A stretch of DNA of 32,000 bases, from positions 870,001-902,000 of the forward strand of contig OY760660.1 in NCBI GenBank assembly GCA_963663995.1, read 5' to 3'. Shown here in pieces: positions 1 to 25,075 of this stretch; within the stretch, counting starts at the first letter, position 1, and each line of letters opens with the position of its first letter. Both the position numbers and the translations under genes were made by a program. Source of the stretch: Erysipelotrichaceae bacterium. Lineage in GTDB: Bacteria; Bacillota_I; Bacilli_A; Erysipelotrichales; Erysipelotrichaceae. The notes below the pieces were generated by a model that saw nothing but the letters and a program-made list of their open reading frames with translations, was not told the DNA's origin and did no database searches.

Positions 1-954
1 GCTCTTATTGAGTCGTTTAATTGCTTTTTGTCTTTTTTAATTGAATCAACCAAATCTGTTAACTTTAAATTATATTTCTTTGTTTTTATAATTTGATTTA
101 AAATAGTTTCAGTTCTAGAGATATAGTTTTCGTTAAGGAGTCCTCGTTTAAATGAAATTCTATTAGCAACTATCATTCCAATCGCAACAGCAGTTCCATG
201 TGGTACTTTATAATTTGTTGCTGATTCGATAGCATGTCCAAAGGTATGGGCAAAGTTTAACAATACTCTCTCATTACGATCAAATTCATCTTTTTGAATA
301 TAATTTTTTTTAAAATTTAATGAAAAAGTATTATATTTTATGATAGTTTTTGAATCTCTCTTTAATAATAAATCAACATCTTTTTCAAGTCGATTTAACC
401 CCTCAAATCCATACATTAAGTTGAATTTAACAACTTCTCCTAGACCACTTAAATAATCCATTTCAAGTAAACTTTTAAAAAAAATTTGTATTTATATATA
501 TTTTTGTTGGTGGATAAAAAGTTCCTAATAAATTCTTAAAATTCTTGTAGTTAAGAGATGTTTTCCCTCCAATACAACTATCAGCTGATGCTAACAATGT
601 TGTTGGAAAAAACACCCAATCTATCCCTCGATATAACACATTCGCAATAAAACCAGTTAAATCTTGAACAATACCACCGCCAATTGAAACTAATCTAGCA
701 TTTCTTTTCCCTGGTATTTCAATCATCTTATCTAAAATATTAAATACTGTTTTTATGTTTTTATTTTTTTCAGTGGCTTTTAACAAAAATAATCTATTTG
801 AAGGTATGCCATCTAAAAAATCATTGCTATAAAGTGAATAGACTTTGCTATCAACAACATAAAATGTGTTTTTGTTATCATAAATGATGTCAAATATTGA
901 TGATTTTTTTGTAAATGTAACTTCGTAATTTTTTAGTTGTGATTTAATTTTCAT
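1..954 (-). pseudogene. 3-dehydroquinate-synthase-like gene (DHQS / sugar-phosphate-cyclase superfamily), split by a frameshift in an 8-nt homopolymer. Its 3' end leaves the window.
   Basis: ORF 475..954 has its true ATG at 954..952, forming ATGA with the upstream TGA. It encodes the nucleotide-binding half, including 'RLVSIGGGIVQDLTGFIA'. It stops at TAA 475-477, at the edge of an A8 run (477-484; T8 on the coding strand). My hand translation of the minus strand from 476 to 1, shifted by one base, is open to the window edge. It reads KSLLEMDYLSGLGEVVKFN...LNFAHTFGHAIESATNYKVPHGTAVAIGM...SIKKDKKQL. These are the metal-binding His motifs and the C-terminal DKK motif of DHQS-type enzymes. Confidence 0.75.
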
Positions 955-1616
955 TGAACTGAATAGCCCCCATCGATTACAATTTCTTGACCTGTAATAT
1001 ATGTATTTTTTTCGGAACATAAATAAAAAACTATTTCAGCAATTTCTTCTGGTTGAGCTAGTCTTTTTAATGGAATGGTTTCTGCTATTTTTCCTATTTG
1101 TTCTGTTGAATTATTTTTACTTGTTAGTTCTGTTAATGTAAACCCTGGGCATACTGTATTAACGAGTATATTTTCATTTGCTACTTCAAGAGCTAACGTT
1201 GTTGTGATTCCATGAATACCTCTTTTTGTTGCACTATAAATTCCTCTTCCAGGTTTTGAAACAACTGACCATATTGATGCAATATTTACAATCCTTCCAT
1301 ACTTTTGAGTTTTCATTTTTGGAACAAATGATTTAAGTAGATAGATAGGCGCGATTAAATTTATATTGAATGTATTTTCGATATCTGTTTCTTTAACATT
1401 TTCAATAAGATTAATTTCATTTATTCCAGCATTATTTACTAAAACATCATAGGTATCATTTTTATGATTCTCAATAAATTTTTTAATTGAGTCTATATTG
1501 CTTAAATCTAGTTCATTTCTTGTGGGTGCATAAACAAAATAACCATTACTTTCAAATATTTTTTTAATTTCTAATCCAATCCCTCTAGAACCACCTGTCA
1601 ATAAAACTTTTTTCAT
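951..1616 (-). CDS. Classical short-chain dehydrogenase/reductase (FabG-like); candidate ketoreductase of the sugar pathway (YerF-like role)
   Basis: Carries TGGSRGIG (TGxxxGxG) and YSATK (YxxxK). I place the start at ATG 1616, which has a GGAGA Shine-Dalgarno 6 nt upstream and lies 1 nt after the upstream stop. The ORF-track start at 1643 would overlap the upstream gene by 26 nt. Confidence 0.8.
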   Translation of the reverse strand: MKKVLLTGGSRGIGLEIKKIFESNGYFVYAPTRNELDLSNIDSIKKFIENHKNDTYDVLVNNAGINEINLIENVKETDIENTFNINLIAPIYLLKSFVPKMKTQKYGRIVNIASIWSVVSKPGRGIYSATKRGIHGITTTLALEVANENILVNTVCPGFTLTELTSKNNSTEQIGKIAETIPLKRLAQPEEIAEIVFYLCSEKNTYITGQEIVIDGGYSVQ

Positions 1617-1617
1617 T

Positions 1618-3414
1618 TTATTCTCCAAATTTAATACTTTCATATTCTTCTCGATCTAAGAATGGAAACATATCATCTATTCTTGGAGAAACTATCGTTC
1701 CATCTTCTAAAACTTTTGATGATAATTTTGGTTCAAAGTTTTGTTCTACATCTAAAATAACTTCGCATAGAATTGGACCTTTTTCTCTTAACACATTGTT
1801 TAATATTTCATCTAATTTGGAATGGTTATCAATTTTTTTATATTTTATATCATATGCATATGCAATTTTTTCCAACTCAGGAAAACTTACACCATTATCA
1901 GAACACACACCTATTAAATCTTTTTTAGTCAAGTTCTTTTGAGTTTGTCTAATCGAGTGATATCCATTATTATTTAGCACAAATAAAACAATATCTAAAT
2001 TGTAATGCTTAATAGTTTGTAATTCTTGTATATTCATTTGTAAGCTTCCATCGCCTTCAAAACAAATGATTTTTTCACCAGTTGCAATATTAGCTCCAAT
2101 CGCTGCAGGTAATCCATAACCCATTGAAGCACAACCTGAATTTGTATATAACCTTTGTCCTTTTTTGATTTTCGCCGCTTGAAATGATATAACACATGCT
2201 GAACCATTACTTGTTACTACTTTTTGATTTTCATTCAACAAATTAAAACATTTATCCATGAAAATATAGGGATTAACATACTCATTATTTTGATAATATT
2301 CTTTTCTTACTACTGGATATTTATTATTTGTTTCACGACACCACCTTAACCAATTGTCAAATTTATTGTCACAAGTATTTAGTGATAGATATTTATTTAG
2401 TGAAATCAAAACATCTTTTACATTAGCATGTATTGGAAAATCAATAGATAAAGTAGGTTTTAATAATTCATTTTGATCTATATCAACCATTATTTTAAAA
2501 GCGTTTTTTGCGAAATTTCTAAAATTATAGCTAATTTGTCTAATATTTAATCGACTCCCAAGAACTAGTAACAAGTCAGCATTTTCAACAACAAAATTGC
2601 CTCCTCTAGTTCCAATAGTACCTGGTCTTCCACAAAATAAAGGATGATCATCCCATAATGTATCATGTGCATTCCACGCTGTTACAACAGGAATATTTAG
2701 TTTCTCTATTAATTGAATAAACTCTTTATTTGCATCTGCTAATCTAATACCACTACCTACAAAAACAACAGGTTTTTTAGAATTGTTTATTTTATCAATA
2801 ATTTTCGGACTTAATAATTCATCGTAAATAGGTGTTTGTGTATCAGTATATACATTATTTTTTCTTATTAACTGATCTGTATCGATTATTGCTGCTTGAA
2901 CATCAAGTGGAATATCTAACCAAACTGGTCCTTTACGCCCAGAATTAGCCTCATTCCAAGCTTCTTCTAAGTGAAAGAGAATTTCATTTTCATGCATTAC
3001 AATTTGAGAATATTTAGTCATAGAGTTAACACAATCAGTTATATTAAACTCTTGATCACCTAATTGTCTTAGTTTTATATCAGTTGATTTAATTGTAGTT
3101 TCACGTTTAACTTGTCCAGATATGACAAACATTGGTATAGAGTCTAACCACGCACCTAAAACACCCGTTAAAGCATTTGTTCCTCCAGGACCGCTTGTTA
3201 CACAAACTAAAGGTAAATTCCCTGTCATTCTTGCATAAGATTCAGCAGCAATTGCACATGCTTGCTCATGATGTTGATAGTAACTCTTTAATTCTGGATG
3301 GTGTCCAAAAGAATCGTTTAGATGCATTGCACCACCACCTGTTATTGTAAATACATCTTTAACACCTTTTGATACGAAAAAATTCGCTATGAAATCTGAT
3401 ACTTTAATTTTCAT
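1618..3414 (-). CDS. Thiamine-diphosphate-dependent enzyme, acetolactate-synthase large-subunit-like (598 aa); candidate YerE-like two-carbon branching enzyme
   Basis: The ThDP-binding motif GDGSLQMNIQELQT...NNNGY is present. The N-terminal Pyr domain shows 'GGGAMHLND...HEQACAIAAESYAR'. The three-domain length is typical of AHAS/YerE-type enzymes. The gene overlaps the upstream gene by 11 nt. Confidence 0.8.
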   Translation of the reverse strand: MKIKVSDFIANFFVSKGVKDVFTITGGGAMHLNDSFGHHPELKSYYQHHEQACAIAAESYARMTGNLPLVCVTSGPGGTNALTGVLGAWLDSIPMFVISGQVKRETTIKSTDIKLRQLGDQEFNITDCVNSMTKYSQIVMHENEILFHLEEAWNEANSGRKGPVWLDIPLDVQAAIIDTDQLIRKNNVYTDTQTPIYDELLSPKIIDKINNSKKPVVFVGSGIRLADANKEFIQLIEKLNIPVVTAWNAHDTLWDDHPLFCGRPGTIGTRGGNFVVENADLLLVLGSRLNIRQISYNFRNFAKNAFKIMVDIDQNELLKPTLSIDFPIHANVKDVLISLNKYLSLNTCDNKFDNWLRWCRETNNKYPVVRKEYYQNNEYVNPYIFMDKCFNLLNENQKVVTSNGSACVISFQAAKIKKGQRLYTNSGCASMGYGLPAAIGANIATGEKIICFEGDGSLQMNIQELQTIKHYNLDIVLFVLNNNGYHSIRQTQKNLTKKDLIGVCSDNGVSFPELEKIAYAYDIKYKKIDNHSKLDEILNNVLREKGPILCEVILDVEQNFEPKLSSKVLEDGTIVSPRIDDMFPFLDREEYESIKFGE

Positions 3415-5047
3415 GTTTTAATTCCTCTCTCAATAAATCTTTAATTTCTAAAGTATATAAGCTTTTAGTTATAAAATTCAAATCTAAATTACTAAAATTT
3501 CTTTTTAGACTACTAATTGTATCAATATTGATTTCAATAGCTCTTTCTTTTGTAAATGAATAGTTCATATTAGGATGAACATAGTTTGATGTTATTGCCT
3601 TTGTATATCCATCAAAACCTGCTAAATTGATACTCTTGACATCTAAACTTTTTAATAATTTTATTGCCATTATTAATGGGTTATCCTTAAATTCAGCGTC
3701 TGTATCTATCAAACTACCAAAATCTAAAACAAAATCAAAATCGCCTTCACTTTTACGTATATTTGACATAGCAATAACTTTGAAATTTGAATTCTTGTTA
3801 TTTACTTGAGTTGATATTTGTACATATCGCTTTGAATTACTTAAAAATAAATAATTAATATTATATTCTGGAATGAAATTGAGTGATATTACAATTGGAT
3901 TCTTTAAATTAATAAATAAGTCTATTAAATCTTTTTGATTATTTATTGAGTTTCCTGGGCCGATTAAAAGTATATCTTTATGTGATAATTCACTTTGAAG
4001 TGTAGTAATAACACCAGCATTAATAAGCCTATTGGATTGATAATCAAAATATAATTTCTCAATCAACTTTTCATCATAGTCGAGTCGGCTTGATTCATTT
4101 ATTGATTTTAAGATGGTATCAATAGATGAAACAGACAATGTTTGCCGATCTAATAAATAGGTAACATAATTAGGATGGCAATGATTTGATGCGGCCATAA
4201 AGAGTTTTAGAGTATATCCCCAAGGTTTCTCTTTGAAAATATTAATTAAGGTTACATCTATGGCTTCTAATAGTTGAGTAATATCGTAATTCCCATTTAA
4301 ATTGTCATTCATATACATGGCAAGAAGTTCTGTTGGTGCATTGCCTGCCCCTTTACCCATTCCGAATACACTACCATCTACCATTAAACTTCGATCACTT
4401 TTTACATGATTTATCATTTCTATACAATTCGAATAGGCTAATTGAAAATTATTATGTGAATGAAAACCTAGATTTATTTTTAAATCTAATTTTTCATCAG
4501 CAATATCAACATAATTTAAAAGTCCTTCTCTATGTAATAAACCATAAGTGTCGACAATAGAAAATGCAAAAGGTGATACTTTATTCACTTTATCCATTAA
4601 CTCTATGAATTCATCAGTACTATAACTAGTTATTGAAACAGCTTGTACAAATACTTTATATCCTTTTCTTATCAATTCGGAACAAAATTGTAAAGCCGCA
4701 TCTGCTTTAGGTTTCTTGAAGATAACCCTTATTCCATCTAAATAACAATTCTTTGCATCATCAATCGCACTTATTGGACAAGTTCCAAAATCAATCATCC
4801 CAACAACCATTGTATTTTTCTTATCTAGATGAGATAGATTTTTTGTGTAGGATTTTGAATCTGGTTGAATGGTTCGATCAATACTGTATGCTTGTCTTTC
4901 ATCCATAAACCCAACTTCTATAATGTCTATATTAGCACTTACAATTCGTTCAAATATATTAGATATACTTTCCTTACCGAAATTCCATTCATTAACATAA
5001 CCACCATCTCGTAAAGTACAATCCAAAATTTGTATTTTCTTATTCAT
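3404..5047 (-). CDS. Fusion protein: N-terminal DRE-TIM (HMGL-like) aldolase / pyruvate-carboxyltransferase domain plus a C-terminal domain of about 200 aa of uncertain family (possibly MptE/DUF115-like)
   Basis: 'ILDCTLRDGG' lies at residues 6-15 and 'GFHSHNNFQLAYSN' (HxH metal site) follows; both are hallmarks of DRE-TIM metallolyases. The C-terminal part ('ILLIGPGNSI...', '...SINLAGFDGY') resembles the Rossmann-like MptE/Maf (DUF115) fold. That resemblance rests on my memory of family motifs only. Confidence 0.65.
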   Translation of the reverse strand: MNKKIQILDCTLRDGGYVNEWNFGKESISNIFERIVSANIDIIEVGFMDERQAYSIDRTIQPDSKSYTKNLSHLDKKNTMVVGMIDFGTCPISAIDDAKNCYLDGIRVIFKKPKADAALQFCSELIRKGYKVFVQAVSITSYSTDEFIELMDKVNKVSPFAFSIVDTYGLLHREGLLNYVDIADEKLDLKINLGFHSHNNFQLAYSNCIEMINHVKSDRSLMVDGSVFGMGKGAGNAPTELLAMYMNDNLNGNYDITQLLEAIDVTLINIFKEKPWGYTLKLFMAASNHCHPNYVTYLLDRQTLSVSSIDTILKSINESSRLDYDEKLIEKLYFDYQSNRLINAGVITTLQSELSHKDILLIGPGNSINNQKDLIDLFINLKNPIVISLNFIPEYNINYLFLSNSKRYVQISTQVNNKNSNFKVIAMSNIRKSEGDFDFVLDFGSLIDTDAEFKDNPLIMAIKLLKSLDVKSINLAGFDGYTKAITSNYVHPNMNYSFTKERAIEINIDTISSLKRNFSNLDLNFITKSLYTLEIKDLLREELKHEN

Positions 5048-5448
5048 ACGACCACCTTTTTCTTAAAGACCCAAAATTTATTTAATAAATAATTTAATGG
5101 AATTGAATAAACTAAATTAAAAATTGGAGCAATAGTCTCCGAAACATTAAAACCTTCTATCATAATAACTAAAGTTAAAGTGTTTATGAAGAAGGTGAAA
5201 GCGTAACTTATATATGTTTTTAACAATTCTTTAAAATTGAATTTATTACTAAAAAATACATACTTATGATTCCAATAATATGAGTTAAAAACACCGATTA
5301 TAAATCCAGATGTATTTGCAATAGCATAATGTACATTTAGAAAAATCAATAAATAATATACACAAAATGAAACAATAGTATTACTTAAACCTACTATTGA
5401 AAATTTAATAATTTCAACAATATCTAAACTATTTAATTTACTCAACAT
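5044..5448 (-). CDS. GtrA/GtcA-family small membrane protein (putative polyprenyl-phosphate-sugar flippase)
   Basis: 134 aa with four predicted TM helices. It has an N-terminal 'KFSIVGLSNTIVSF' and a C-terminal 'LNKFWVFKKK', typical of the GtrA family. It overlaps the downstream gene as ATGA and abuts the rfbH stop. Confidence 0.75.
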   Translation of the reverse strand: MLSKLNSLDIVEIIKFSIVGLSNTIVSFCVYYLLIFLNVHYAIANTSGFIIGVFNSYYWNHKYVFFSNKFNFKELLKTYISYAFTFFINTLTLVIMIEGFNVSETIAPIFNLVYSIPLNYLLNKFWVFKKKVVV

Positions 5449-6756
5449 TTATTTGGTTTTTTCCTCAAAAAAGGACTTAAATACAGACCCAATATATTCC
5501 ATTATTTTTTCATCAATACCAGGATATACCCCTATAAAGAATGTGTTGTTCATGACTGTATCGGTATTAGTAAGTTCACCAATTACTTTAATATCTTGGT
5601 CTAAATAAGCAGGTTGTTTTGTCATATTTCCAGCAAATAATTGTCTTGTCATAATTTTATTGCTTTCAAGATAATTAACAATTTCATTTTTATTAAAATA
5701 TTCATTTGAAATAACAGTAATTGGAAAACCAAACCAAGATGGATTTGAATTTACTTCAGCTTTTGGTAAAATCAAGAATTCTTTATATTTATCTAAAATT
5801 GTAGTTAATCTATTAAAATTCTCTCTGCGTTTTTCTATAAATAAAGGTAATTTTTCAAGTTGCGCACATCCAATAGCAGCTTGCATATCTGTAACTTTTA
5901 AATTGTAACCTATATGTGAATAAACATATTTATGATCATAACCATATGGTAATTCACCGTACTGTGTTTTAAATCTCCTACCACATGTATCATTTTGACC
6001 TGGATCACAGTAACAATCTCTACCCCAATCTCTATATGATTGAATAATAGTTTTTAATAATGGATTGTTTGTAAGTACTGCACCACCTTCGCCCATAGTA
6101 ATATGATGAGCAGGATAAAAGCTAACAGTTGAAATATCTCCAAATGAACCTACTTTTCTATTATCATAAATTGAGCCAACAGCATCACAACAATCTTCAA
6201 CTAAAAAAAGATTATACTTCTTACTAATTTCTACGATTTTTCCAAGATTAAATGGATTACCCAAGGTATGAGCTAAAACTATAGCTTTTGTTTTTGTAGT
6301 AATTGCTTTTTCTAATTGCTCTACATTTACATTATATGTTTCTAAATCAACATCTACAAAAACAGGGATAAGTCCATTTTGAATGATTGGATTTACTGTC
6401 GTTGGAAAACCGGCAGCTACAGTAATAACTTCATCACCTTTACGTAGTTGTCGTTCACCTAATTTTGATGAAGTTAATGCTGAAACAGCCAATAAATTTG
6501 CAGATGAACCTGAATTAGTGAGTAAACAATATCTGTTGTCCATAAATTTCGCAAAATCTTTTTCAAATTGAGCGGCATATCTACCAGTTGTTAACCAGAA
6601 ATCGAGTGACGAATCCACCAATTTCACAAGTTCATTATCATCAAAAATTCGACCAGCAAATGGTATTAATGTTTTTCCTTCAATAAATTCTTTTTTACTG
6701 AACTCTTCTTCATAATATTCTTTAACTAAAGATAATATTTGTTCTCTTTTACTCAT
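5449..6756 (-). CDS. rfbH: CDP-6-deoxy-L-threo-D-glycero-4-hexulose 3-dehydrase (E1; RfbH/DdhC)
   Basis: DegT/aminotransferase fold. His replaces the PLP lysine ([14 protein letters not shown]). The cysteine spacing is exactly C-X57-C-X1-C-X7-C (..EDCC..[57 aa]..[11 protein letters not shown]), which is the [2Fe-2S] motif characteristic of E1. The N-terminal 'FWLTTGRY' is typical of RfbH. Confidence 0.9.
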
Positions 6757-7825
6757 TTATTTCTCCTAAATATTCACTTATCTGTTTTAAAACTACTTCA
6801 TTTAAATCTGGAGTTTTAAGTTGGAAGTCAACAAACTCAACTACTTTTTCAATTGTTTTATCAATATCCCACTTTGGGACCCAACTAAATGTTTTATGAA
6901 ACTTTGAACAATCGAGCATTAATAAATTCGCTTCATGTTGCTGTGCTGCAACTTTACCATAGTTAACATTTATAGGATTCATTGAATTCATTTTTAAATG
7001 TTTATTAAATAAATCAACTATTTGCTTTGTTTTTACACAATTTTTCTCTTCCGGCCCAATATTATAAGAAGATGCAAGTTCAAAGTCACTTACTTGTTCT
7101 TTTGCAATCTTAAGATACGCTAATAACGGTTCTAAGACATGTTGGTAAGGCCGAATTGAATTTGGGTTTCTAATCTCTAGAATTTCTTTAGTTTCTAATG
7201 ATCTAATGCAGTCAGGAATTATTCTATTATCAGAAAAATCTCCGCCACCAAGAACATTTCCAGCTCGCATGGTTGAAATAGGTATTTTTTTGTCTTTTAA
7301 GAAAGATCTGTTATAGGTTGCAGTTACTAATTCAGAGCAAGACTTACTATTTGAATAGGGATCATAACCATCTAATACATCATTTTCACGATATCCCCAT
7401 ATCCATTCATTGTTTCTATAAACTTTATCAGTTGTAACATTAACAACTGATATTACACTTTTTGAAAGTCTCACACATTCAAGAACATTTGCCGTTCCCA
7501 TGACATTAATTTCGTAAGTTTCTCTAGGATTTTTATATGATTCTAACACTAATGGTTGTGCTGCCAAATGAAATACTACTTCAGGTTTAAACTCATCAAA
7601 AACACTTTTGAGTTTTTCAAAATCTCTAACATCAGCATAGATTTGTTTAATTTTTTTCTCTTGATTTAGCAATTTATATAAACTAGGCGATGTGTTTGGT
7701 TCTAATGCATACCCAATTATCTTTGCATCAAAATTTAATAGAACTTCTGATAGCCATGAACCTTTAAATCCAGTATTCCCAGTAATAAGAACCTTTTTAT
7801 CTTTATAAAACGATCTCAAACTCAT
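6749..7825 (-). CDS. rfbG: CDP-glucose 4,6-dehydratase
   Basis: Carries '[14 protein letters not shown]' (Rossmann) and 'YSNSK' (YxxxK). Length and context, between rfbF and rfbH, fit. I place the start at ATG 7825, forming ATGA with the rfbF stop; the ORF-track start at 7840 is a 5-codon extension. Confidence 0.88.
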
Positions 7826-8598
7826 TTCCAAACCTTCCATGGAGCATTATTTGTAGACCATAATTCTTCCAATAATAATTTATCTCTCATAGTATCCATA
7901 CATTGCCAAAAATCGAAATGTTGATATGCACCTAACTTGTTACTTTTCGCCAATTCAACGAGTGGTTCCTTTTCAAAAACCGTTTGATCACCTTCAATAT
8001 AATTAAAAATTTCCGGTTCAACTACCATGAATCCACCGTTTATCCATCCACCATCTTCTTTAACTTTTTCCTGAAAATTAATTATTTTTTGGTTATCGAT
8101 ATCCAAAACTCCAAAACGTCCACCAGGTTGAATTGCTGATATTGTTACAAGGTTGTCAGATTCTTGGTGATTGCTAAGAAGTCCATTGATATCAACATCT
8201 GCTACACCATCACCATAAGTTAATAAAAATGGTTCGTCGCCAATATAATCTTTAACTCTTTTAATTCGGCCACCAGTCATTGTATTAAGTCCTGTATCAA
8301 CGATTGTTACCTTCCAAGGTTCTGCATGATTATTATGAACAATTAAATCTTCACGATTGCCACTGAAATCAAAAGTTATATCAGAATTATGTAAATAATA
8401 ATTTGAAAAATATTCTTTAATTACATATTGTTTGTAACCAGCACAAATAATGAATTCATTAAATCCATATGAAGAATAATATTTCATAATATGCCATAAG
8501 ATTGGTTTTTCACCAATTTCTATCATAGGTTTTGGAACTAAATGTGACTCTTCACTAATACGTGTACCAAAACCTCCCGCTAAAATTACAACTTTCAT
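7822..8598 (-). CDS. rfbF: Glucose-1-phosphate cytidylyltransferase
   Basis: 'MKVVILAGGFGTRISEES...PKPMIEIGEKPILWHIM' is the canonical N-terminus of this enzyme. It is 258 aa. A GAGGGG Shine-Dalgarno lies upstream. It is the first gene of the minus-strand operon. Confidence 0.9.
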   Translation of the reverse strand: MKVVILAGGFGTRISEESHLVPKPMIEIGEKPILWHIMKYYSSYGFNEFIICAGYKQYVIKEYFSNYYLHNSDITFDFSGNREDLIVHNNHAEPWKVTIVDTGLNTMTGGRIKRVKDYIGDEPFLLTYGDGVADVDINGLLSNHQESDNLVTISAIQPGGRFGVLDIDNQKIINFQEKVKEDGGWINGGFMVVEPEIFNYIEGDQTVFEKEPLVELAKSNKLGAYQHFDFWQCMDTMRDKLLLEELWSTNNAPWKVWK

Positions 8599-8717
8599 TT
8601 AATTCCCCTCATAAGATATTTTCTTTATTATTTTATCATTATAATATTAGTAAAAGTAAAATAGAAAAAAATTAATCATCCTACACATTTCTTTTTAAAA
8701 ATTGCCTCATTTTAATA

Positions 8718-8726
8718 TGTTATAAT
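8718..8726 (+). promoter_or_regulatory. Candidate extended -10 promoter element (TGtTATAAT) for the plus-strand glycosylation operon
   Basis: TGTTATAAT lies about 30 nt upstream of the GTG start at 8757, with a GGGGG Shine-Dalgarno at about 8743-8747. The nearest -35-like hexamer (TTGCCT, 8702-8707) has only a 13-nt spacer, so the call rests on the extended -10 alone. Confidence 0.35.
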
Positions 8727-8756
8727 AATTCAAAATTAAGGTCTGGGGGTTCTTCT

Positions 8757-9719
8757 GTGTATAATTATAATAAAGAGATTACAATAATTGTTCCAACTTA
8801 CAATGAAGAAATTAATATTCCATTAATTTACCAAAGGATCTCAGATTTATTTAATACTAAATTACAGAATTACAATTATAAAATACTATTTGTTGATAAT
8901 AAATCAAAAGATAAATCAAGAAGTGTGATAAGAATGTTGGCACAAAAAGATAAACGTGTTCAATATATTTTTTATGTTAGAAACTTCGGCTTTTCAAAAT
9001 CAACATTTTATGCTTTAGGCCAAGCAGAAGGAGATGCTGCTATACTTTTATTTGCTGATATGCAGGATCCACCTGAATTAATAGAAAAATTTATTTTTGA
9101 ATGGGAGAATGGATTTCAAGTTGTTATTGGTATAAAAAATAAAAGTCAGGAAAATAGAGTAATATATAAAATCCGTTCTCTATACTATTACTTTATTAAT
9201 GAAATTACCGAAATTGACCACATAAATCAATTTACTGGATTTGGACTATATGATAGAAAAATGCTAAATATTTTTTCAAGGATTGATGACCCACTTCCTT
9301 ATTTGAGAGGAATTGTCGCTGAGTTGTCCCCAGAATGTAAAAGAATTTACTATGAACAAGAAAAGAGAAAATATGGTAAAACTTCCTTTAATTTCTGGAA
9401 TCTTTATGATGTGGCTATGTTAGGAATAACATCTTATTCAAAATCATTAATGCGTATCGCAGTAATTATCGGTACGTTAATATCGACTATTAGTTTAGTT
9501 ATCGCATTTATAACTGTTATATTAAAAACAATGAAAATTATTGATTATCCAGTGGGTAATGCTGCTATACTTTTTGGAGTTTATTTATTTGGCGGACTTA
9601 TTACACTTTTCTTAGGTATACAAGGAGAGTACATTGCAAATATAAACATTAGGACAATGCATCATCCTATTGTAATAGAAGATGAAAGGCATAACTTAAC
9701 TGGTAAAAAGAATGCGTAA
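8757..9719 (+). CDS. GT2 polyprenyl-phosphate glycosyltransferase (GtrB/CsbB/ArnC/DPM1-like) with two C-terminal TM helices
   Basis: Carries 'IIVPTYNEEINI' and 'FADMQDPPE' (DxD-type motif of DPM1-like enzymes). Two hydrophobic helices sit at the C-terminus (LMRIAVIIGTLISTISLVIAFI; ILFGVYLFGGLITLFLGI). The start codon is GTG. Confidence 0.8.
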   Translation: MYNYNKEITIIVPTYNEEINIPLIYQRISDLFNTKLQNYNYKILFVDNKSKDKSRSVIRMLAQKDKRVQYIFYVRNFGFSKSTFYALGQAEGDAAILLFADMQDPPELIEKFIFEWENGFQVVIGIKNKSQENRVIYKIRSLYYYFINEITEIDHINQFTGFGLYDRKMLNIFSRIDDPLPYLRGIVAELSPECKRIYYEQEKRKYGKTSFNFWNLYDVAMLGITSYSKSLMRIAVIIGTLISTISLVIAFITVILKTMKIIDYPVGNAAILFGVYLFGGLITLFLGIQGEYIANINIRTMHHPIVIEDERHNLTGKKNA

Positions 9720-10635
9720 AGTAATTATATCAGGTGGTACTGGTTTTATTGGTAGATGGCTCATTAAAGACTTACTAATGAATAATTATCAAGTTTTGGC
9801 AATTATTAGAAATAAAAATAAACTAGATAACAATTTTTTGACTAATCCAAACTTTTCATATATTGAAGGTGATTTAAGAAATTTAAATACAGATAAATTC
9901 CCAAAGAATAAATTCGATTGTTTTTTTCACCTGGCTTGGGAAGGTGTAAATTCTACTGATAAAAATATTTTAAAAATGCAAATAAGAAATATTGAAATGT
10001 CAATTAATGCAATTGAACTATGCAATAAATTAAATTGTGATAAGTTCATTTCCGCTGGGACTGTTGCTGAATATGTTTTCAGTAAAAACGTTCTTAATGT
10101 TGAGGAAAAACAAACACCAAATGATTTTTATGGTGCCGCAAAAACCTCAACACACTATTTCTTAAATGTTCGTGCAAGACAGTTAAATCAAAAATTTATT
10201 TGGGCAATTTTGCCCAGCACATATGGTGAATTTCGCAATGATAATAATATTATTACCTATACAATACAATCGTTGTTACACCGACGAAAACCTTCATATG
10301 GCAATCTGAATCAAATGTGGGATTTTCTATATGTTTCTGATGTTGCAACAGCATTAAGATTAATATCAGAGAATGGAAAAGATAATATGATATATGGTAT
10401 TGGTTCAGGAATTTATAAACCATTAAAAGATTATATAACTATAATTAGAGATCTTATTGATCCTCTTTTACCCTTAGGAATTAATGAAAAACCTGAAATG
10501 ACTCAACAAACACTTAGTTCTTGCGTGAATATATCACAATTATGTAATGATACTGGATTCAAACCTTTAATAAGTTTTGAAATAGGCATAAAAAAGACCA
10601 TAGAATATTGGAAAAATAAAAATGAAAATAACTAA
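9712..10635 (+). CDS. Extended SDR, NAD-dependent epimerase/dehydratase/4-ketoreductase family
   Basis: Carries 'ISGGTGFIGRWL' and 'YGAAK'. It is 307 aa and overlaps the upstream gene by 8 nt. Its size and family are those of CDP-paratose/abequose-synthase-type 4-reductases, but substrate cannot be assigned from sequence alone. Confidence 0.7.
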   Translation: MRKVIISGGTGFIGRWLIKDLLMNNYQVLAIIRNKNKLDNNFLTNPNFSYIEGDLRNLNTDKFPKNKFDCFFHLAWEGVNSTDKNILKMQIRNIEMSINAIELCNKLNCDKFISAGTVAEYVFSKNVLNVEEKQTPNDFYGAAKTSTHYFLNVRARQLNQKFIWAILPSTYGEFRNDNNIITYTIQSLLHRRKPSYGNLNQMWDFLYVSDVATALRLISENGKDNMIYGIGSGIYKPLKDYITIIRDLIDPLLPLGINEKPEMTQQTLSSCVNISQLCNDTGFKPLISFEIGIKKTIEYWKNKNENN

Positions 10636-11851
10636 GAATGATAATAACAAATTTGCAAGTATATTTCTATTTGTAGTAGTTTCTTCATTAATTTTGTGGT
10701 TTATTACAATATTATATGAAGGCATACAGTCTACTCAATATTCTATATTTTTTGATAAATGTAATGATTTGTTTGCTGATTTCACTAACATTAGTGGATA
10801 TAGTTCAACTCGAGATGTTTATTTAAACCCTATAAATGGACCAGGTCAAAAAGGGTATCCCCCTTTACCATATATAATTGCATATGTCTTTTCACGAATA
10901 GCAGTATTTGACACTGTATCATATCGAGATATATATGCTCAAAAAATGTTTTTAATTATTTTTGTTATATTTATTTCAATGTTACTAAGTTTAGTAAATT
11001 GGATAATTTCTGAAGAATTAAAAGGCTCTAAACTATTTCGGCTAACACTAGCTTTTGCATTAACATACTCAAATACTATGTTATTTTCAATAGAACGTGC
11101 AAATCTAATAATATTTACATTATTATTCTTGTTAGTTTATATTTTTTGGTATGATAATGATTCTAAAATTTTAAGAGAGTTTTCACTTATTAGTCTTGCT
11201 TTAGCGATATCCTTCAAATTAACTCCGGCAATATTAGGTGTATTTTTATTATTTGAAAAAAGATATTTCGATATTTTAAGATTAGGTATTTATAGTTTAA
11301 TTCTCGTATTTTTACCATTTTTGTTTTTTAATGGCGGGTTTAATAATATATCTGTTATGTTATATAATATGAATGAATTCTTTAAAACTTATTCTGACTT
11401 AGAAGGAATTGGGTTTAAGGCAATAATTTATAATTTAATTAGCTATTTTATTAAAGATTTCCAATTTTCAAATCTTACAAATAATATTGTTGATCTAATA
11501 TCAATTTCTTCTTCTATTTTATTATTATTTACTTCATGGATGAATAGGCAAAAATGGAAGAGAGTACTAACGATAACATTTGTACTTTTATTAATTCCAA
11601 AAATTTCACATCAATATAATGCACTATACTTATTACCTTCCTTGGTATTGTTTTTAAATGAGAAAAATCGAGGTAAGGGGGATTTTATAATATTAGTTTC
11701 ATTTATTATTATGTCTTCTGTTTATTATATTCCTAATTTCGATAAGTACTCTATTTCATTATTTATGATCTATATCTATTTAATGATGATTAGCATTGTA
11801 AATATTAATAACTTTCTTAAGAGTTTTTTAGTTAAAAAAAATTATAAATGA
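10622..11851 (+). CDS. Polytopic membrane protein, GT-C-fold glycosyltransferase candidate (DUF2029/GT87-like)
   Basis: About 10 hydrophobic helices. The first loop carries 'DLFADF...GYPPLPY', an acidic plus YPP pattern that I associate with DUF2029/GT87 and other GT-C enzymes. It overlaps the upstream gene by 14 nt. Confidence 0.5.
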   Translation: MKITKNDNNKFASIFLFVVVSSLILWFITILYEGIQSTQYSIFFDKCNDLFADFTNISGYSSTRDVYLNPINGPGQKGYPPLPYIIAYVFSRIAVFDTVSYRDIYAQKMFLIIFVIFISMLLSLVNWIISEELKGSKLFRLTLAFALTYSNTMLFSIERANLIIFTLLFLLVYIFWYDNDSKILREFSLISLALAISFKLTPAILGVFLLFEKRYFDILRLGIYSLILVFLPFLFFNGGFNNISVMLYNMNEFFKTYSDLEGIGFKAIIYNLISYFIKDFQFSNLTNNIVDLISISSSILLLFTSWMNRQKWKRVLTITFVLLLIPKISHQYNALYLLPSLVLFLNEKNRGKGDFIILVSFIIMSSVYYIPNFDKYSISLFMIYIYLMMISIVNINNFLKSFLVKKNYK

Positions 11852-11927
11852 ATTTTTGAGAGTATAAAAATAATTTTATTAACTTCAAATTAAAATGAAA
11901 TTTTAGATAATTAATTGTGGGTGAGGC

Positions 11928-14243
11928 GTGAAAAAAGTTAAGTTATCAATTTATTTATTTGGAATAATATTTATAATATTTTCCTTTATTAAAATTTACC
12001 ATCCAAATTATGGAATTATTCTTAAGTATGATTATTCTTGGGGTCACATTCCTAACTATCATGAATTCTTCAATTTACTAAAAAATGGTCTTCCATTATG
12101 GTCTTGGAATTTCTTTTTAGGAACAAATTATTGGGGCTCAAAAGTCATAGGAATAATGGGTGATATTTTTTCATGGTTTGCTTTTGTATTAAACTATTAT
12201 ATTAAAAACACAACTATATCAATGAGCATTCTACTAATCGTCAAATATATAATTGGTTACACCGGTTTTTTTCTTCTAAGTAAAACATTTACTAATAAAA
12301 TTTATATCAGATTAATTTCATCACTTTTCTTTATATTCAGTGGATGGAGCACAACATTTATTGAGCAAACATTTTTCACTTCATTTTACGTGATACTTCC
12401 CTTTATGTTTTATGGTGTTGAAAAATATCTTTTAGAAAAAAAATACTCGATTTATATATTATCTGTTGCGATATTAATATCTATTGATTTCTATTTATTT
12501 TGGCCAACATCAATATTATTGTTATTTTACTGGCTATATAGAAATTTAATAATATTTAAAATAAATAAAAGTAATTTCACTATTTTTATTAAAAATTCTA
12601 TTGTGTTACTTTTTTATACAATAATTGGATTATTGATATCATCTGTTTTTTGGCTGCCAGGAATGATGCATTTACTTAGTTCTGCAAGAATTGGTAATTA
12701 TTTATTTTCATATACAAATTGGAGTTTGATAAATATTACAAGTTTTTTTGTATTTTCTTTTATTCCAGTTCTAAAATATTTAAATGGATTTTTAAAAGAT
12801 AGTTGGTATTACTTTTACCAAATTGGTCTGTATTACGGATCTATTTTTTTAATCTTAATACCACATGTTTTTTATGTTTTTGAATCAAAAAAAGAGAGGA
12901 TTGTTAATTCAATTTTTATTTTGTTGATATATTCACTCTTACTATCACCGAAAATTGGTCTGTTTTTTCATTTTACATATAGTTTAAGATATACATTCGT
13001 TATAACATTTTTTGGTTTAATTATTGGGATTCAAATTTTAGATAAATTACATAAGTTAAATAAGTTTATTTTATTAATTGTACAAATGGTAATAGCTATT
13101 GCTTATATATATCTTACAAATGTAATTATTCCTGAAATTTATGGATTTAACATGTCCATAAACACAACTGAATTAATAATTTTAAAATATATTTTTATTC
13201 TTACAATTATTTACACAACAATTTTACTTTTTATAAATTCGAATTTAAAAAGACCAAATTTAATAAACGCACTTTCTATTGTTTTAATCTTTTTTTCTTT
13301 AATTGAACTATACATATCAACTGATTTTTCCATAAAGTCTCAAGACTTTTTAATTGAAAATGAAACTCCTCCTTTTGTTAGAGATTCAAATTATTTAGAT
13401 GCTTTAACTTTCTTAAAATCGACTGATACTACATTCTATAGAATTTATCAGGATGATCTAAGTATATCCAATATAAATTTAGTATATGATTTTAAAAGTA
13501 TCTCAACATATGACAGCACATACCAATATTCATTAATAAAATACTTAGATTGGACACGCCAATACCCTTACACAAATTGGGAGTTTAAATATCAAGAACC
13601 CTCATTTAATTTAATTATGGATACTAGATATGCGATTGTTAAATCATCAAATGTTGATAGTTATATGGTTAGCGACTGGTACACAACGGAAATTTATAAT
13701 AATGGAATGTATAAAATTCTTAAATACAAAGACGATGTAAGTATTGCGTATACATATAATTTTTGCTCCAGTTATAATGAGATCACTAATTTTGTAAGTC
13801 AAGATCAGTATCAACTATTTGAACTAGGTGATTTATTAAAACAAACTCTATATTTTAAAAACGGATGCGATATCGAACTACAAAAGTATACAAATCACGA
13901 AACATTCAATCGTAACTACTTTGATCCAATTTATTATTCTCAGAATTCAATGTTTTTTGACATCGATATTGAACAAAATCAACTCTTATTTTTCAGTATT
14001 CCATACGACGAAGGATGGTCTCTGTATGATAATGATAAAAAAATAGATTTTTATGAAGTTCAAGGTGGCTTTATAGGAATCCCAATTGATTCAGGCAATC
14101 ATAAATTACTCTTTAAGTTTAGACCAGAAGGTTTTAATCTAGGGCTTATATTAAGTCTAATAGGTCTTGTAATATTAATAATAAAAGTAATTGTATCTAA
14201 ATTTAGGTCAAAATCTAATATCAAAAAATATGTTAATAAATAA
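11928..14243 (+). CDS. YfhO-family membrane protein (GT-C-type extracytoplasmic glycosyltransferase)
   Basis: 771 aa with many N-terminal TM helices. It has an early loop 'LKNGLPLWSWNFFLGTNYWGS', a large C-terminal soluble domain and a final single TM anchor (LGLILSLIGLVILIIKVIV). This is the YfhO architecture. The start is GTG at 11928, with GGTGAGG just upstream. Confidence 0.6.
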   Translation: MKKVKLSIYLFGIIFIIFSFIKIYHPNYGIILKYDYSWGHIPNYHEFFNLLKNGLPLWSWNFFLGTNYWGSKVIGIMGDIFSWFAFVLNYYIKNTTISMSILLIVKYIIGYTGFFLLSKTFTNKIYIRLISSLFFIFSGWSTTFIEQTFFTSFYVILPFMFYGVEKYLLEKKYSIYILSVAILISIDFYLFWPTSILLLFYWLYRNLIIFKINKSNFTIFIKNSIVLLFYTIIGLLISSVFWLPGMMHLLSSARIGNYLFSYTNWSLINITSFFVFSFIPVLKYLNGFLKDSWYYFYQIGLYYGSIFLILIPHVFYVFESKKERIVNSIFILLIYSLLLSPKIGLFFHFTYSLRYTFVITFFGLIIGIQILDKLHKLNKFILLIVQMVIAIAYIYLTNVIIPEIYGFNMSINTTELIILKYIFILTIIYTTILLFINSNLKRPNLINALSIVLIFFSLIELYISTDFSIKSQDFLIENETPPFVRDSNYLDALTFLKSTDTTFYRIYQDDLSISNINLVYDFKSISTYDSTYQYSLIKYLDWTRQYPYTNWEFKYQEPSFNLIMDTRYAIVKSSNVDSYMVSDWYTTEIYNNGMYKILKYKDDVSIAYTYNFCSSYNEITNFVSQDQYQLFELGDLLKQTLYFKNGCDIELQKYTNHETFNRNYFDPIYYSQNSMFFDIDIEQNQLLFFSIPYDEGWSLYDNDKKIDFYEVQGGFIGIPIDSGNHKLLFKFRPEGFNLGLILSLIGLVILIIKVIVSKFRSKSNIKKYVNK

Positions 14244-16059
14244 ATGTTTCTAAAACCAAATTAACAGTAGTATTATGCTTATATATTTTGTAAACTCCTC
14301 CGACAACCGGGTAATTACTGTCATCAAATAATGAATATGCAAAATATTCAAATTCCCTGTTAATTGAATAGATATATAAATAGTCGTAATTTAAAAGCAA
14401 ATTAATAAAGTCTTCTTTATCAATGGTTTTTTCCCAATATCCTGATATATATTCATCAAATGATATATATTGATAATCCATATTTATTTTTCTTGGTAAC
14501 ATATAATATCTAAATTGATTTGTGATTAAATCAGATTCTTGTTGAGCTACTATAAAAATTCCTTGATCAAAAGTTGTTAATTCATTAAGTTTATTCGAAA
14601 TTGATTCTATTTTGGAAACTTGATATGGTTTTAAGTTCAATGAAAAAGAATCATTGCTCCAATTATTAGTTATTGATATGAAAATTACTATAAGTAAAAT
14701 AAAAATAGATTTTATATTTAGTAGTTCTATTCTTTGATTAATATAACTAAAAATTAAATATAATAACGAAAATAATAAATAGGTATTTAAGTATCTTGTT
14801 AATGAAAATAAATTCTCAAATTCATAACTAGAAAAACTATTGTTATATAAAATAAATAAAATATAGATATAAACAAATGAAAATAAAAATATCAGGTATA
14901 TTGATATTTCTAATCTTTTTGTTTTATCAAGAAATAGGTTTATTAATAAAATAAAAATATTTAGATAAAAGAATGAGAAAATCGAAGAAGAAAATAATAA
15001 TGGTTTTGCATATATATGATTAAAGAAATTACTTATTAGTACATTAGAATTTGAAGATAACTGATAAATTAAAATTTTAAAAGATTCAAAGATTGTAGAT
15101 AAATTAATATCGAATTGACCAGCTATAGATAAATTTTTAATATAAATAGACCATAAAATTGAAAAAGCATATGCAAAAATAATACATAAAATTAATTTTA
15201 GGTAATATACTTCATGTTTTATTAATAATTTAAACAAAAGAATAATTAATCCTAGAATTATAAAAATAATTCCTATTTGTTTAATGAACAGTATGGAAAT
15301 ACTTAATAAAAATATTTCAAAAAAACTAAATAAACTAAATTCATTATAATTATTCAAAATTCTAATATAGTAAGCTGCCGTTATTGCCATTATAAAATCT
15401 AAGTAAAGAGTTGAATAAAACTTTGCATCTTCTAGGTTAAATAAAATGACTGTTGTTATGGAAAAAATAAAAACGATAAAAATGCTTATTACATTTTTTA
15501 TTATATTTTTTGATTGTAATTTCTCACTAAAAATTGAAATAAAGAAAGAAAATTCAAGCAATTGAATAGCTCTAAACAAATATGACTCAGAATAACTTCC
15601 TTTTATCCAAATCCAAAAAAGCTCGATCAATGAAACTAGTGGCGGGTAATCTCTATGATATATTAATGTCGATATAGAGCTGGTATATAAATTATTTGTT
15701 CTATACATATCCTTAACCATATATGCCCAATGAGTAAAATCGTCCCAAGCAAAAATTTGCTTATTAATATTTATATACGTTACAAAAATATAAAATAGTA
15801 TAAAAAGCAACAAAGTTAAGTAAAAATTATTATTAAATAATTCTTTATGATGCTTTATCGCAATTATTAAACCAAATAACGAAAAACCACAATATAGTAA
15901 ATAACCAACGAAAATATTATTAAACAGACTTGTAATAAGACTAAAAATCCCTATAAATATAATACTCAAAGGTAAAAGTCTACCAAAAGATTTTTTACTC
16001 AACTGCATCAAGAGAATATTAAAGAAAGTGATTGTTAAAAAAGGTAAAATAATTCCCAT
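14233..16059 (-). CDS. Polytopic membrane protein with a C-terminal soluble domain; third GT-C-like glycosyltransferase candidate
   Basis: More than 12 hydrophobic helices. The first large loop reads 'WDDFTHWAYMV...YHRDYPPLVSL' (DD...YPP). I call ATG 16059 as the native start. The ORF-track start (GTG 16131) lies inside the IS30 inverted repeat. With the IS removed, the frame is closed by a TAG 8 codons upstream of the insertion point (+ strand CTA at 17358-17360), with no ATG, GTG or TTG before ATG 16059. Confidence 0.55.
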   Translation of the reverse strand: MGIILPFLTITFFNILLMQLSKKSFGRLLPLSIIFIGIFSLITSLFNNIFVGYLLYCGFSLFGLIIAIKHHKELFNNNFYLTLLLFILFYIFVTYININKQIFAWDDFTHWAYMVKDMYRTNNLYTSSISTLIYHRDYPPLVSLIELFWIWIKGSYSESYLFRAIQLLEFSFFISIFSEKLQSKNIIKNVISIFIVFIFSITTVILFNLEDAKFYSTLYLDFIMAITAAYYIRILNNYNEFSLFSFFEIFLLSISILFIKQIGIIFIILGLIILLFKLLIKHEVYYLKLILCIIFAYAFSILWSIYIKNLSIAGQFDINLSTIFESFKILIYQLSSNSNVLISNFFNHIYAKPLLFSSSIFSFFYLNIFILLINLFLDKTKRLEISIYLIFLFSFVYIYILFILYNNSFSSYEFENLFSLTRYLNTYLLFSLLYLIFSYINQRIELLNIKSIFILLIVIFISITNNWSNDSFSLNLKPYQVSKIESISNKLNELTTFDQGIFIVAQQESDLITNQFRYYMLPRKINMDYQYISFDEYISGYWEKTIDKEDFINLLLNYDYLYIYSINREFEYFAYSLFDDSNYPVVGGVYKIYKHNTTVNLVLETFIY

Positions 16060-16091
16060 GCTAGTATTATATCTTGATAAATAATTTAAAA

Positions 16092-16104
16092 AAAATAATT
16101 TTAA
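16092..16104. repeat. Left copy of the 13-bp direct repeat (putative target-site duplication) of the IS30 element
   Basis: AAAATAATTTTAA is identical to 17324-17336 and abuts the IS30 inverted repeat. Confidence 0.6.
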
Positions 16105-23094: not shown

Positions 23095-23103
23095 TTGTTT
23101 TTT
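23073..23103. terminator. Candidate bidirectional hairpin terminator spanning the overlapping stops of two convergent genes
   Basis: AAAACAACTAG (23073-23083), loop CCAATGA, CTAGTTGTTTT (23091-23101), followed by further T residues on the plus strand. The 11-bp perfect stem has only 3 G:C pairs, so it is weak. Confidence 0.35.
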
Positions 23104-24983: not shown

Positions 24984-25075
24984 CCATCTCTCCCCAAACA
25001 TCAATGTGATTCTAAACTATTATGAATTTAAAATGTTACAAAATTATTACTATTTTTTAATTTAATAACTTTAAG

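Follow-up and report, generated by a model that had tools for sequence, protein, structure and literature searches.

We have analysed a stretch of 32,000 nt (the window) from an Erysipelotrichaceae bacterium (assembly GCA_963663995.1, contig OY760660.1, positions 870,001-902,000 of the forward strand), in which the G+C content is about 28% throughout. Positions 1-8598 carry eight consecutive minus-strand genes, each overlapping or abutting the next. In order they encode RfbF, RfbG, RfbH (E1), a GtrA-family protein, a 547-aa aldolase, a 598-aa thiamine diphosphate (ThDP)-dependent enzyme, a 221-aa short-chain dehydrogenase/reductase (SDR), and an AroB-like protein that resembles 3-dehydroquinate synthase (DHQS). 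Judged by the proteins it encodes, the operon very probably directs the synthesis of a CDP-activated 3,6-dideoxy sugar that bears an additional carbon side chain. An earlier reading made from the letters of the DNA alone (the sequence-only reading) had linked the same eight genes and predicted a yersiniose-type sugar with a two-carbon branch. The features of the locus are collected in Table 1.

Table 1. Features of the sugar operon and of the divergent genes beside it, in window coordinates.
Feature	Position	Strand	Basis or remark
AroB-related TIGR04425 protein (DHQS-like)	1..954	-	Frameshifted at 477-484; left window edge removes ~33 C-terminal residues
Classical SDR ketoreductase, 221 aa	951..1616	-	adh_short_C2 151.7 bits; TGGSRGIG, NNAG and YSATK motifs
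Predicted YerE-like ThDP-dependent carboligase, 598 aa	1618..3414	-	Three TPP_enzyme domains (PF02776, PF00205, PF02775)
Two-domain aldolase, 547 aa	3404..5047	-	HMGL-like Pfam and 4-hydroxy-2-oxovalerate aldolase NCBIfam, both below cut-off
GtrA-family small membrane protein, 134 aa; candidate polyprenyl-phosphate-linked sugar flippase	5044..5448	-	PF04138 81.8 bits
rfbH/ddhC (E1), CDP-6-deoxy-L-threo-D-glycero-4-hexulose 3-dehydrase, 435 aa	5449..6756	-	NF011936 726 bits vs cut-off 423
rfbG/ddhB, CDP-glucose 4,6-dehydratase	6749..7840, start 7825 or 7840	-	TIGR02622 equivalog 433 bits vs cut-off 278
rfbF/ddhA, glucose-1-phosphate cytidylyltransferase, 258 aa	7822..8598	-	TIGR02623 equivalog 405.9 bits vs cut-off 300; Pfam NTP_transferase
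Intergenic region between divergent operons, 158 bp	8599..8756	.	Read from sequence; presumably holds both promoters
GtrB/PgfS-like family 2 glycosyltransferase (GT2), 320 aa; candidate polyprenyl-phosphate glycosyltransferase	8757..9719	+	PF00535
Extended SDR, 307 aa, epimerase/dehydratase family	9712..10635	+	PF01370 115.7 bits; no NCBIfam equivalog passed
Polytopic membrane protein, 409 aa, weakly GT87/GT-C-like	10622..11851	+	PF09594 E 3e-5, slightly short of cut-off
YfhO-family membrane glycosyltransferase, 771 aa; candidate extracytoplasmic transferase	11928..14243	+	PF09586 188.8 bits

The linkage of the eight genes is confirmed by the list of open reading frames (ORFs) and by reading each junction on the reverse strand, from which we find the genes to be translationally coupled. 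ATGA overlaps join rfbF to rfbG (7825-7822), gtrA to the aldolase gene (5047-5044) and the SDR gene to the DHQS-like gene (954-951); if rfbG starts at 7840 instead, its overlap with rfbF becomes 19 nt. The overlap is 8 nt between rfbG and rfbH (6749-6756) and 11 nt between the aldolase and ThDP enzyme genes (3404-3414), with rfbH directly abutting gtrA at 5449/5448. The stop codon of the ThDP enzyme gene ends at 1618 and the ATG of the SDR lies at 1616, leaving a gap of 1 nt; this start has a GGAG 8 nt upstream, and agrees with where the gene is called in L083, the closest relative. Since TGA serves as the stop codon in the gene overlaps, the genome does not use genetic code 4 (the Mycoplasma type). 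The whole order RfbF-RfbG-RfbH-GtrA-aldolase-ThDP-SDR-AroB is identical in two other organisms (L004 and L083), and so exact a recurrence means that the arrangement is conserved and not the result of chance. Both of those operons continue into an extended SDR and a GT2, with a YfhO gene following the GT2 in L004. A scan for consensus promoters was uninformative in the AT-rich DNA of the window (58 sites against 62 expected), as was a scan for terminators. No Rfam family matched anywhere in the window, including the intergenic region, and a tRNA scan of the window found none.

RfbF, RfbG and RfbH all exceed curated equivalog cut-offs, and the core genes for CDP-4-keto-3,6-dideoxyglucose are thus as real as had been claimed. 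The identity of E1 is equally firm, with the iron-sulfur spacing C190-X57-C248-X1-C250-X7-C258 exact and His217 occupying the position of the Schiff-base (pyridoxal phosphate) lysine of DegT-family enzymes.

The 598-aa protein is predicted to be a YerE-like carboligase and not an acetohydroxyacid synthase (AHAS). It has the ThDP motif GDG-X24-NNN (GDGSLQ...NNN) at residue 454, and the glutamate of an HHEQA sequence at residues 48-52. Its best match in the PDB is JanthE (8rph, 386 bits), followed by 5ahk (241 bits), which we take to be PpYerE, and E. coli AHAS I (236 bits). In a rough neighbour-joining tree with E. coli IlvB as the root, PpYerE is the first to branch off, and the sequences from all 83 related loci described below form a clade to which JanthE is sister. 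The comparisons covered JanthE, PpYerE and AHAS. The protein might instead be an AHAS, or another ThDP enzyme unconnected with sugars, that lies in the operon by chance; the locus would then make an unbranched 3,6-dideoxyhexose only. AHAS models are the top-scoring ones in NCBIfam, and the protein is as close in percent identity to E. coli IlvB (30.7%) as to PpYerE (30.8%). As identity does not separate the two, the YerE-like assignment rests on the match to JanthE and on gene context. Yet all the AHAS models fall far below their cut-offs (TIGR00118, for example, gives 339 bits vs 538), and JanthE scores 150 bits above any AHAS. There is no ilvN, ilvC or ilvD in the window, the linkage of relatives to rfbF, rfbG and rfbH is conserved across phyla, and no equivalog for a 4-reductase of the abequose/paratose type was found with NCBIfam. 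We consider an AHAS at this position very improbable. The sequence-only reading, which had proposed a YerE-like enzyme, therefore stands in that the protein is nearer to JanthE than to AHAS; the distinction does not extend to PpYerE, whose 241 bits are much the same as the score of the E. coli enzyme.

To place the operon among its relatives, we analysed 83 related loci by searching with the window proteins, by clustering of all ORFs and by running Pfam on the cluster representatives. A scan of one genome per species gave 80 loci with a relative of the ThDP enzyme at 46-64% identity, and two loci from Paenibacillus silvae (L001/L002) came from a separate search. The hosts in the scan, many of them Bacillota, include Lachnospiraceae, Clostridia, Paenibacillus, Christensenella, Bacteroidales, Treponema, Smithella, Planctomycetes, Acidobacteria and one archaeal metagenome-assembled genome (MAG). 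L083 is the closest relative, with a ThDP enzyme 78% identical to that of the window. Clustering places RfbF, RfbG and RfbH at 46-51 of the 83 loci, and tblastn at 50-52 of 82. An extended SDR is found at 71/83 loci and stands immediately beside the ThDP gene more often than any other gene does (38 loci). The GtrB-like GT2 family is present at 54/83, and GtrA at 22/83, each time together with a GtrB-like GT2. An enzyme that forms a keto acid accompanies the ThDP gene at 57 of the 83 loci; it is a fused HMGL-type aldolase at 36, an HpcH/HpaI aldolase at 12 and a NeuB-family synthase at 10. The AroB-like/SDR pair occurs at 20 of these 57 loci vs none of the 26 that lack an aldolase or synthase (Fisher p = 2e-4). 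A HAD phosphatase (22 loci) is similarly biased (20/57 vs 2/26; p = 0.008), which points to a phosphorylated intermediate, and methyltransferases are among the other tailoring genes.

Some individual loci have features of their own. L081, the Methanomassiliicoccaceae archaeon MAG, holds a near-complete cassette of RfbF, RfbH, ThDP enzyme, extended SDR, fused aldolase, AroB-like protein, SDR, GT2 and GT87-like protein, and this is either an inter-domain transfer or a binning artefact. In the P. silvae cluster (1-16095) the AroB-like/SDR pair is missing; in its place, a 625-aa fusion of HAD phosphatase and FkbM methyltransferase and a 395-aa methyltransferase separate the aldolase gene from the ThDP gene. 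The RfbH-like protein of the cluster has 500 aa. This cluster adjoins csp-hpf-secA-prfB, a region that in Bacillus presumably borders flagellin genes. At L068, tandem HpcH/HpaI aldolase paralogues (267 and 264 aa) occupy 11827-13443, with the ThDP gene on one side and the SDR/AroB-like pair on the other.

The aldolase of the window has two domains. The N-terminal domain (residues ~1-320) adopts the fold of a class II pyruvate aldolase of the DmpG/BphI type; the AlphaFold2 model has a pLDDT of 86, and its top Foldseek matches are 4jn6, 1nvm and 3dxi at E~1e-14. Because the full model returned matches to the TIM-barrel domain only, the C-terminal domain (residues 321-547, nt 3407-4087; 227 aa) was modelled separately. 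It is an alpha/beta domain (pLDDT 84) with weak matches to SteA, the archaeal 6-hydroxymethyl-7,8-dihydropterin pyrophosphokinase MptE (8sd5; E 5e-4, TM-score 0.47-0.50), SIS domains and a sialyltransferase, and 1-2 of 32 homologues give weak Pfam matches to MptE-like and GT-D families. GPG and AGFDGY motifs are invariant within it. From the model it looks like a nucleotide-binding alpha/beta domain. The two domains are fused in 36/36 of the loci that have them.

The best sequence match to the aldolase is PDB 3dxi (86.5 bits), Bacteroides vulgatus BVU_2661, deposited as the 'N-terminal domain of a putative aldolase', so that this two-domain family is partly solved and its C-terminal domain is not. 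At residue 17 the protein reads RDGGY, with Tyr17 nearly invariant, where DmpG has RDGSH. We take the histidine of the latter to be His21, which has been linked in DmpG/BphI to catalysis and to the channelling of the aldehyde.

A pathway that pairs such an aldolase with a ThDP enzyme is already published (2022). Erwiniose synthesis in Pectobacterium atrosepticum uses ErwI (a BphI-like aldolase), the dehydrogenase ErwJ, the ThDP enzyme ErwE, the reductase ErwF and the ddh genes (PMC9306805), and ErwE was shown to use 4-hydroxy-2-oxo acids but not pyruvate (Steitz et al. 2022, PMC9306805). The scheme was widened to gastriose and caryophyllose, the latter through MMAR_2331, of the citrate-lyase/HpcH aldolase family, and MMAR_2332 (PMC9306805). 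According to a passage in PMC12247030 that cites Krug 2024, in silico work has uncovered over 200 YerE-like clusters. An aldolase, a YerE-like ThDP enzyme, a reductase and deoxy-keto-sugar genes, the combination expected of a cluster under the scheme of Steitz et al. (2022), are all present in the window. In our tree the window ThDP enzyme lies in a subclade tied to the HMGL-type aldolase and the AroB-like gene, and the aldolase-free loci cluster apart. The DmpG/BphI fold and this aldolase-associated position make a branch longer than C2 the more likely. We therefore consider a CDP-activated 4-C-acyl-branched 3,6-dideoxyhexose of the erwiniose or caryophyllose type, and not of the yersiniose type, to be the probable product as far as the genes allow a prediction.

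The 4-C-branched 3,6-dideoxyhexose of the sequence-only reading thus remains the best prediction, in view of the YerE-like carboligase, the core genes and the linkage of relatives to rfbF, rfbG and rfbH, and that reading was right to see in the aldolase and DHQS-like genes a chemistry beyond the Yersinia pathway. The conserved aldolase and the subclade of the ThDP enzyme speak against its C2 branch drawn from pyruvate. In that version the ThDP enzyme would add an acetyl unit to give yersiniose, with the 221-aa SDR in the role of YerF and the aldolase and DHQS-like protein either unrelated or acting later. We think this unlikely. The carboligase identity and the rfb linkage would suit it equally well, JanthE, the closest characterised relative, accepts pyruvate among many other donors (PMC12188165), and the SDR gene is coupled to the ThDP gene across a single nucleotide. 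However, ErwE, which like the window enzyme has an aldolase partner, does not accept pyruvate, and the distribution of the SDR is not that expected of a YerF. The aldolase-free loci are the likeliest to make yersiniose-type sugars, and an SDR of the 221-aa type is present at 0/26 of them; 22/26 have an extended SDR instead. Among the related loci the 221-aa type always stands immediately upstream of an AroB-like gene and never occurs without one. The SDR is an obligate partner of the AroB-like gene, and is tied to it rather than to the ThDP enzyme. Its assignment as YerF is probably wrong, all the more as an extended SDR is so widespread at these loci. The rarity outside Gram-negative bacteria that had been supposed for this sugar class is not supported either, given at least 80 species-level genomes with a relative of the ThDP enzyme, many of them in Bacillota.

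The extended SDR at 9712-10635 is one candidate for a YerF-like reductase of the branch ketone. It was considered as the canonical partner of the ThDP enzyme and rejected; it is 68% identical to Epim1 of L083 and only ~36% to the canonical ThDP-adjacent extended SDRs, and is a diverged paralogue. In L083 the AroB-like gene is followed downstream by the canonical type, a 304-aa extended SDR, and by a 308-aa GT2; the two are 51-64% identical to ThDP-adjacent counterparts elsewhere (51-52% for this second extended SDR of L083). The GT2 and extended SDR of the window (8757-10635) are accordingly a diverged paralogous pair, and by analogy with L083 this genome may have its YerF-like gene a little beyond the edge of the window. 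In L083 the GT2-SDR-GT87 block and the rfb genes share a strand, whereas in the window they diverge.

The DHQS-like gene contains a +1 frameshift in a run of eight T (A8 on the plus strand) at 477-484, after which the frame stops at 475. Dropping one T joins the two frames into a protein colinear with intact 350-aa homologues, and the extra T is the sole indel in 953 aligned nt against L083, whose intact 350-aa orthologue has T7. It could be a sequencing error, a pseudogene mutation or slipped-strand phase variation. The frame-corrected protein, cut at its C terminus, scores 399.2 bits on TIGR04425 (cut-off 400), and an intact homologue (P0121, 68% identical) scores 421.6, which places the protein in this family. 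NCBIfam names TIGR04425 'AroB-related putative sugar phosphate phospholyase (cyclizing)'; a literature search by family name found nothing. Both proteins fail the model of true aroB (TIGR01357; 257-258 bits vs cut-off 305). The nearest solved structures are genuine DHQS (154 bits), followed by the synthases of 2-deoxy-scyllo-inosose (117) and 2-epi-5-epi-valiolone (94). When plasmids were searched by tblastn with the AroB-like protein, the only matches were to true aroB genes and cyclases, none of them above 36% identity.

The catalytic, metal-binding and substrate-binding residues of DHQS are at least 95% invariant in 138 members of TIGR04425. We take the residues of Aspergillus nidulans DHQS to correspond to those of the reconstructed window protein as follows: R130 to R109, D146 to D125, K152 to K131, N162 to N141, E194 to E173, K197 to K176, K250 to K215, R264 to R229, N268 to N233, H271 to H236, H275 to H240, H287 to H252 and K356 to K309/K310, with E260 presumably replaced by Asp at D225. 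Retention of these residues argues for a carboxylated substrate resembling 3-deoxy-D-arabino-heptulosonate 7-phosphate (DAHP), that is, a 3-deoxy-ulosonate phosphate. A pyruvate aldolase acting with an aldose phosphate would yield just such a compound.

What the DHQS-like protein and the SDR do with it can be answered in two ways. We tentatively favour a module, not previously described, that deoxygenates the precursor of the side chain. The DHQS-type enzyme would possibly be limited to oxidation, beta-elimination of phosphate and re-reduction, and the SDR would trap the resulting methyl ketone before it could cyclise. The branch of caryophyllose is a 1,3,4,5-tetrahydroxyhexyl group (PMC5706390), and for such a branch the donor must be 3,7-dideoxyheptulosonate, which is DAHP after elimination of phosphate and reduction of the methyl ketone. 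Alternatively, the locus could have two products. The DHQS-like enzyme would then cyclise the DAHP-like ulosonate phosphate made by the aldolase, the SDR would convert the ring into a quinate-like cyclitol acid that serves as a separate substituent, and the ThDP enzyme would use pyruvate or another simple donor. The cyclizing activity in the family name, and the retention of the full catalytic set of DHQS, including the residues that act after phosphate elimination, are what a cyclase would show, and the dependence of the AroB-like/SDR pair on an aldolase or synthase is compatible with it. But the pair is confined to ThDP loci that have such a keto-acid-forming enzyme, the pattern expected if all contribute to a single donor, and the operon has no evident gene for a ligase or transferase acting on a cyclitol acid. 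Moreover, the linear product of elimination and reduction is the exact donor needed for caryophyllose (PMC5706390, PMC9306805). Two separate products therefore seem improbable to us.

The pathway that we propose to a long-branched sugar has six steps. In the first, RfbF, RfbG and RfbH (E1), assigned at equivalog level, would convert glucose 1-phosphate and CTP into CDP-4-keto-3,6-dideoxy-D-glucose, with an electron donor for E1 that is presumably encoded elsewhere than at the locus. In the second, the N-terminal domain of the aldolase, from its fold and the published scheme, would join pyruvate to an aldehyde, probably a phosphorylated aldose, giving a 4-hydroxy-2-oxo acid (a 3-deoxy-2-ulosonate). 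The TIGR04425 enzyme might next strip off the terminal phosphate by an NAD+- and metal-dependent beta-elimination in the manner of DHQS, and the adjacent classical SDR might reduce the methyl ketone to an omega-deoxy polyhydroxy 2-oxo acid such as 3,7-dideoxyheptulosonate. In the fourth step the YerE-like enzyme would decarboxylate the 2-oxo acid and place the acyl-anion equivalent on the C4 ketone of the CDP-sugar, as its homology to JanthE and the YerE-like class and its gene linkage suggest. An extended SDR, either that at 9712-10635 or one encoded beyond the left edge as in L083, would reduce the carbonyl of the branch in the role of YerF or ErwF. Finally, going by gene content, the GtrB-like GT2 would load the sugar onto polyprenyl phosphate, GtrA would flip it, and the YfhO or GT87-like protein would attach it to a wall polymer or surface protein.

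Several observations weigh against a product and pathway of this kind. The equal identity of the ThDP enzyme to PpYerE and to IlvB is one. A second is the reductase E3 (DdhD/AscD, a plant-type [2Fe-2S] and flavin reductase), for which there is no ORF in the window, and a motif scan of the 83 related loci gave no E3/AscD-like ORF with the plant-type [2Fe-2S] motif. A housekeeping reductase would have to stand in for it. The E1 homologue SpnQ is served by a housekeeping reductase. An aldehyde dehydrogenase partner for the aldolase, corresponding to the acetaldehyde dehydrogenase ErwJ, is absent here, and the weak matches of the C-terminal aldolase domain assign it no function. Cyclisation of the product is what one would expect of a DHQS-like enzyme, and a carbocycle does not serve as a ThDP donor; furthermore, the frameshift may leave the third step inactive in this organism unless the extra base is a sequencing error. 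The idea that the HAD phosphatase and the AroB-like/SDR pair are mutually exclusive alternatives had to be rejected, as six loci have both. The 83 loci were chosen by similarity to the window ThDP enzyme and so sample one clade, and some lie on truncated contigs, which inflates the counts of absent genes. Lastly, in the literature that we searched we found no report of a glycan with a 4-C-acyl-branched sugar from Bacillota.

Outside the sugar operon, the divergent genes probably provide export, by a route involving GtrA, the GtrB-like GT2 and YfhO. This gene content points to a wall polymer or surface protein as what the branched sugar decorates, by way of a polyprenyl-phosphate carrier. The best NCBIfam matches of the GT2 are PgfS (161 bits, cut-off 500) and an ArnC-type model (92 bits), both below cut-off, and homologues of the 409-aa membrane protein are present at 11/83 loci. 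The grouping of GtrA, a GtrB/PgfS-like GT2, an extended SDR and YfhO/GT-C-like proteins resembles three-component systems for extracytoplasmic glycosylation, such as those of Firmicutes, with GtrA/GtrB/GtrC, CsbB-GtcA-YfhO and the PgfS/PgfM1/PgfE/PgfM2 system of S. mutans as known cases. Those three-component systems use UDP-sugars, whereas here the donor would be a CDP-sugar, and the PgfS score is far from its cut-off.

The operon shares with the erwiniose cluster the supply of the acceptor by ddh genes, an aldolase of the BphI/DmpG type, a YerE-like ThDP enzyme as the joining catalyst and a reductase that finishes the branch, a likeness judged from the types of gene. Unlike that cluster, it contains neither an ErwJ-like dehydrogenase nor ddhD (E3). 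Its aldolase carries the extra 227-aa alpha/beta domain, the DHQS-like protein and SDR are added, genes of the GtrA, GtrB and YfhO types stand where that cluster has O-antigen glycosyltransferases, and the host is of the low-GC Gram-positive type. With the yersiniose A pathway of Yersinia pseudotuberculosis (DdhA-D, YerE, YerF) it has in common a CDP-3,6-dideoxy-4-keto acceptor, a ThDP-dependent C-C bond at C4 and a ketoreduction. The Yersinia pathway uses pyruvate only and has no aldolase, whereas the window has a conserved module for keto-acid supply and an SDR that belongs with the DHQS-like gene, and lacks DdhD. The caryophyllose cluster of Mycobacterium marinum also builds a long, polyhydroxylated and terminally deoxygenated branch from a 2-oxo acid made by an aldolase, and its HpcH/HpaI aldolase family is found beside the ThDP enzyme at some related loci, although the aldolase of the window is of the HMGL/DmpG type. 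As for AroB and the sugar phosphate cyclase superfamily, the DHQS-like protein has their fold and their catalytic, metal-binding and substrate-binding residues, but belongs to the uncharacterised TIGR04425, fails the aroB equivalog (257 vs 305) and is encoded here never in a shikimate context, always with a classical SDR in ThDP/aldolase sugar clusters. What sets the locus apart from the known clusters is thus the fused aldolase, the DHQS-like/SDR module, the missing E3 and the Gtr/YfhO route.

Acyl-branched deoxysugars are rare and strongly antigenic parts of the cell envelope, and the described glycans that we found are those of a small number of proteobacteria, one spirochaete and mycobacteria. 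The cluster in the window and its relatives, at least 80 in number, indicate that the chemistry occurs widely in Bacillota, with gut Lachnospiraceae, Clostridia and Christensenella among the carriers; from these we found no such glycan described. Supply of the side-chain precursor appears to be modular, with three unrelated types of keto-acid-forming enzyme combined with tailoring by a phosphatase, a methyltransferase or the DHQS-like protein. The DHQS-like/SDR pair represents an uncharacterised family with a proposed role that can be tested; if true, its action as a deoxygenation module would explain the terminal methyl group of caryophyllose-type branches. In that case, too, many gut and environmental Bacillota, Bacteroidota and spirochaetes would carry branched sugars of the 12-carbon class in their envelopes, delivered from CDP-sugars through GtrA, GtrB and YfhO. 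The YerE-like enzymes of this clade are also candidate biocatalysts for making chiral tertiary alcohols from long functionalised donors.

In the remainder of the window, two transposase genes separate the YfhO block from a second GT2 gene (18920-19993), one IS30-like (HTH_38+rve; 16160-17215, minus strand) and the other IS3-like (HTH+rve; 17435-18829, minus strand). Their position between glycosylation genes hints that the locus has been rearranged. ORFs of 632 aa (14233-16131, minus strand) and 452 aa (19996-21354, plus strand) match nothing in Pfam or NCBIfam. From 23091 to 29303, on the minus strand, there are genes for a 637-aa LtaS-like protein of the sulfatase family, a 575-aa ABC exporter, a 346-aa fusion of carrier protein and thioesterase and a 488-aa AMP-binding enzyme, which by their families form a putative small acyl- or aminoacyl-activating cassette. 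The end of the window (29300-31992, minus strand) encodes a solute-binding protein of the TAXI/NMT1_3 type beside a fused TRAP-type DctM permease of 570 aa.

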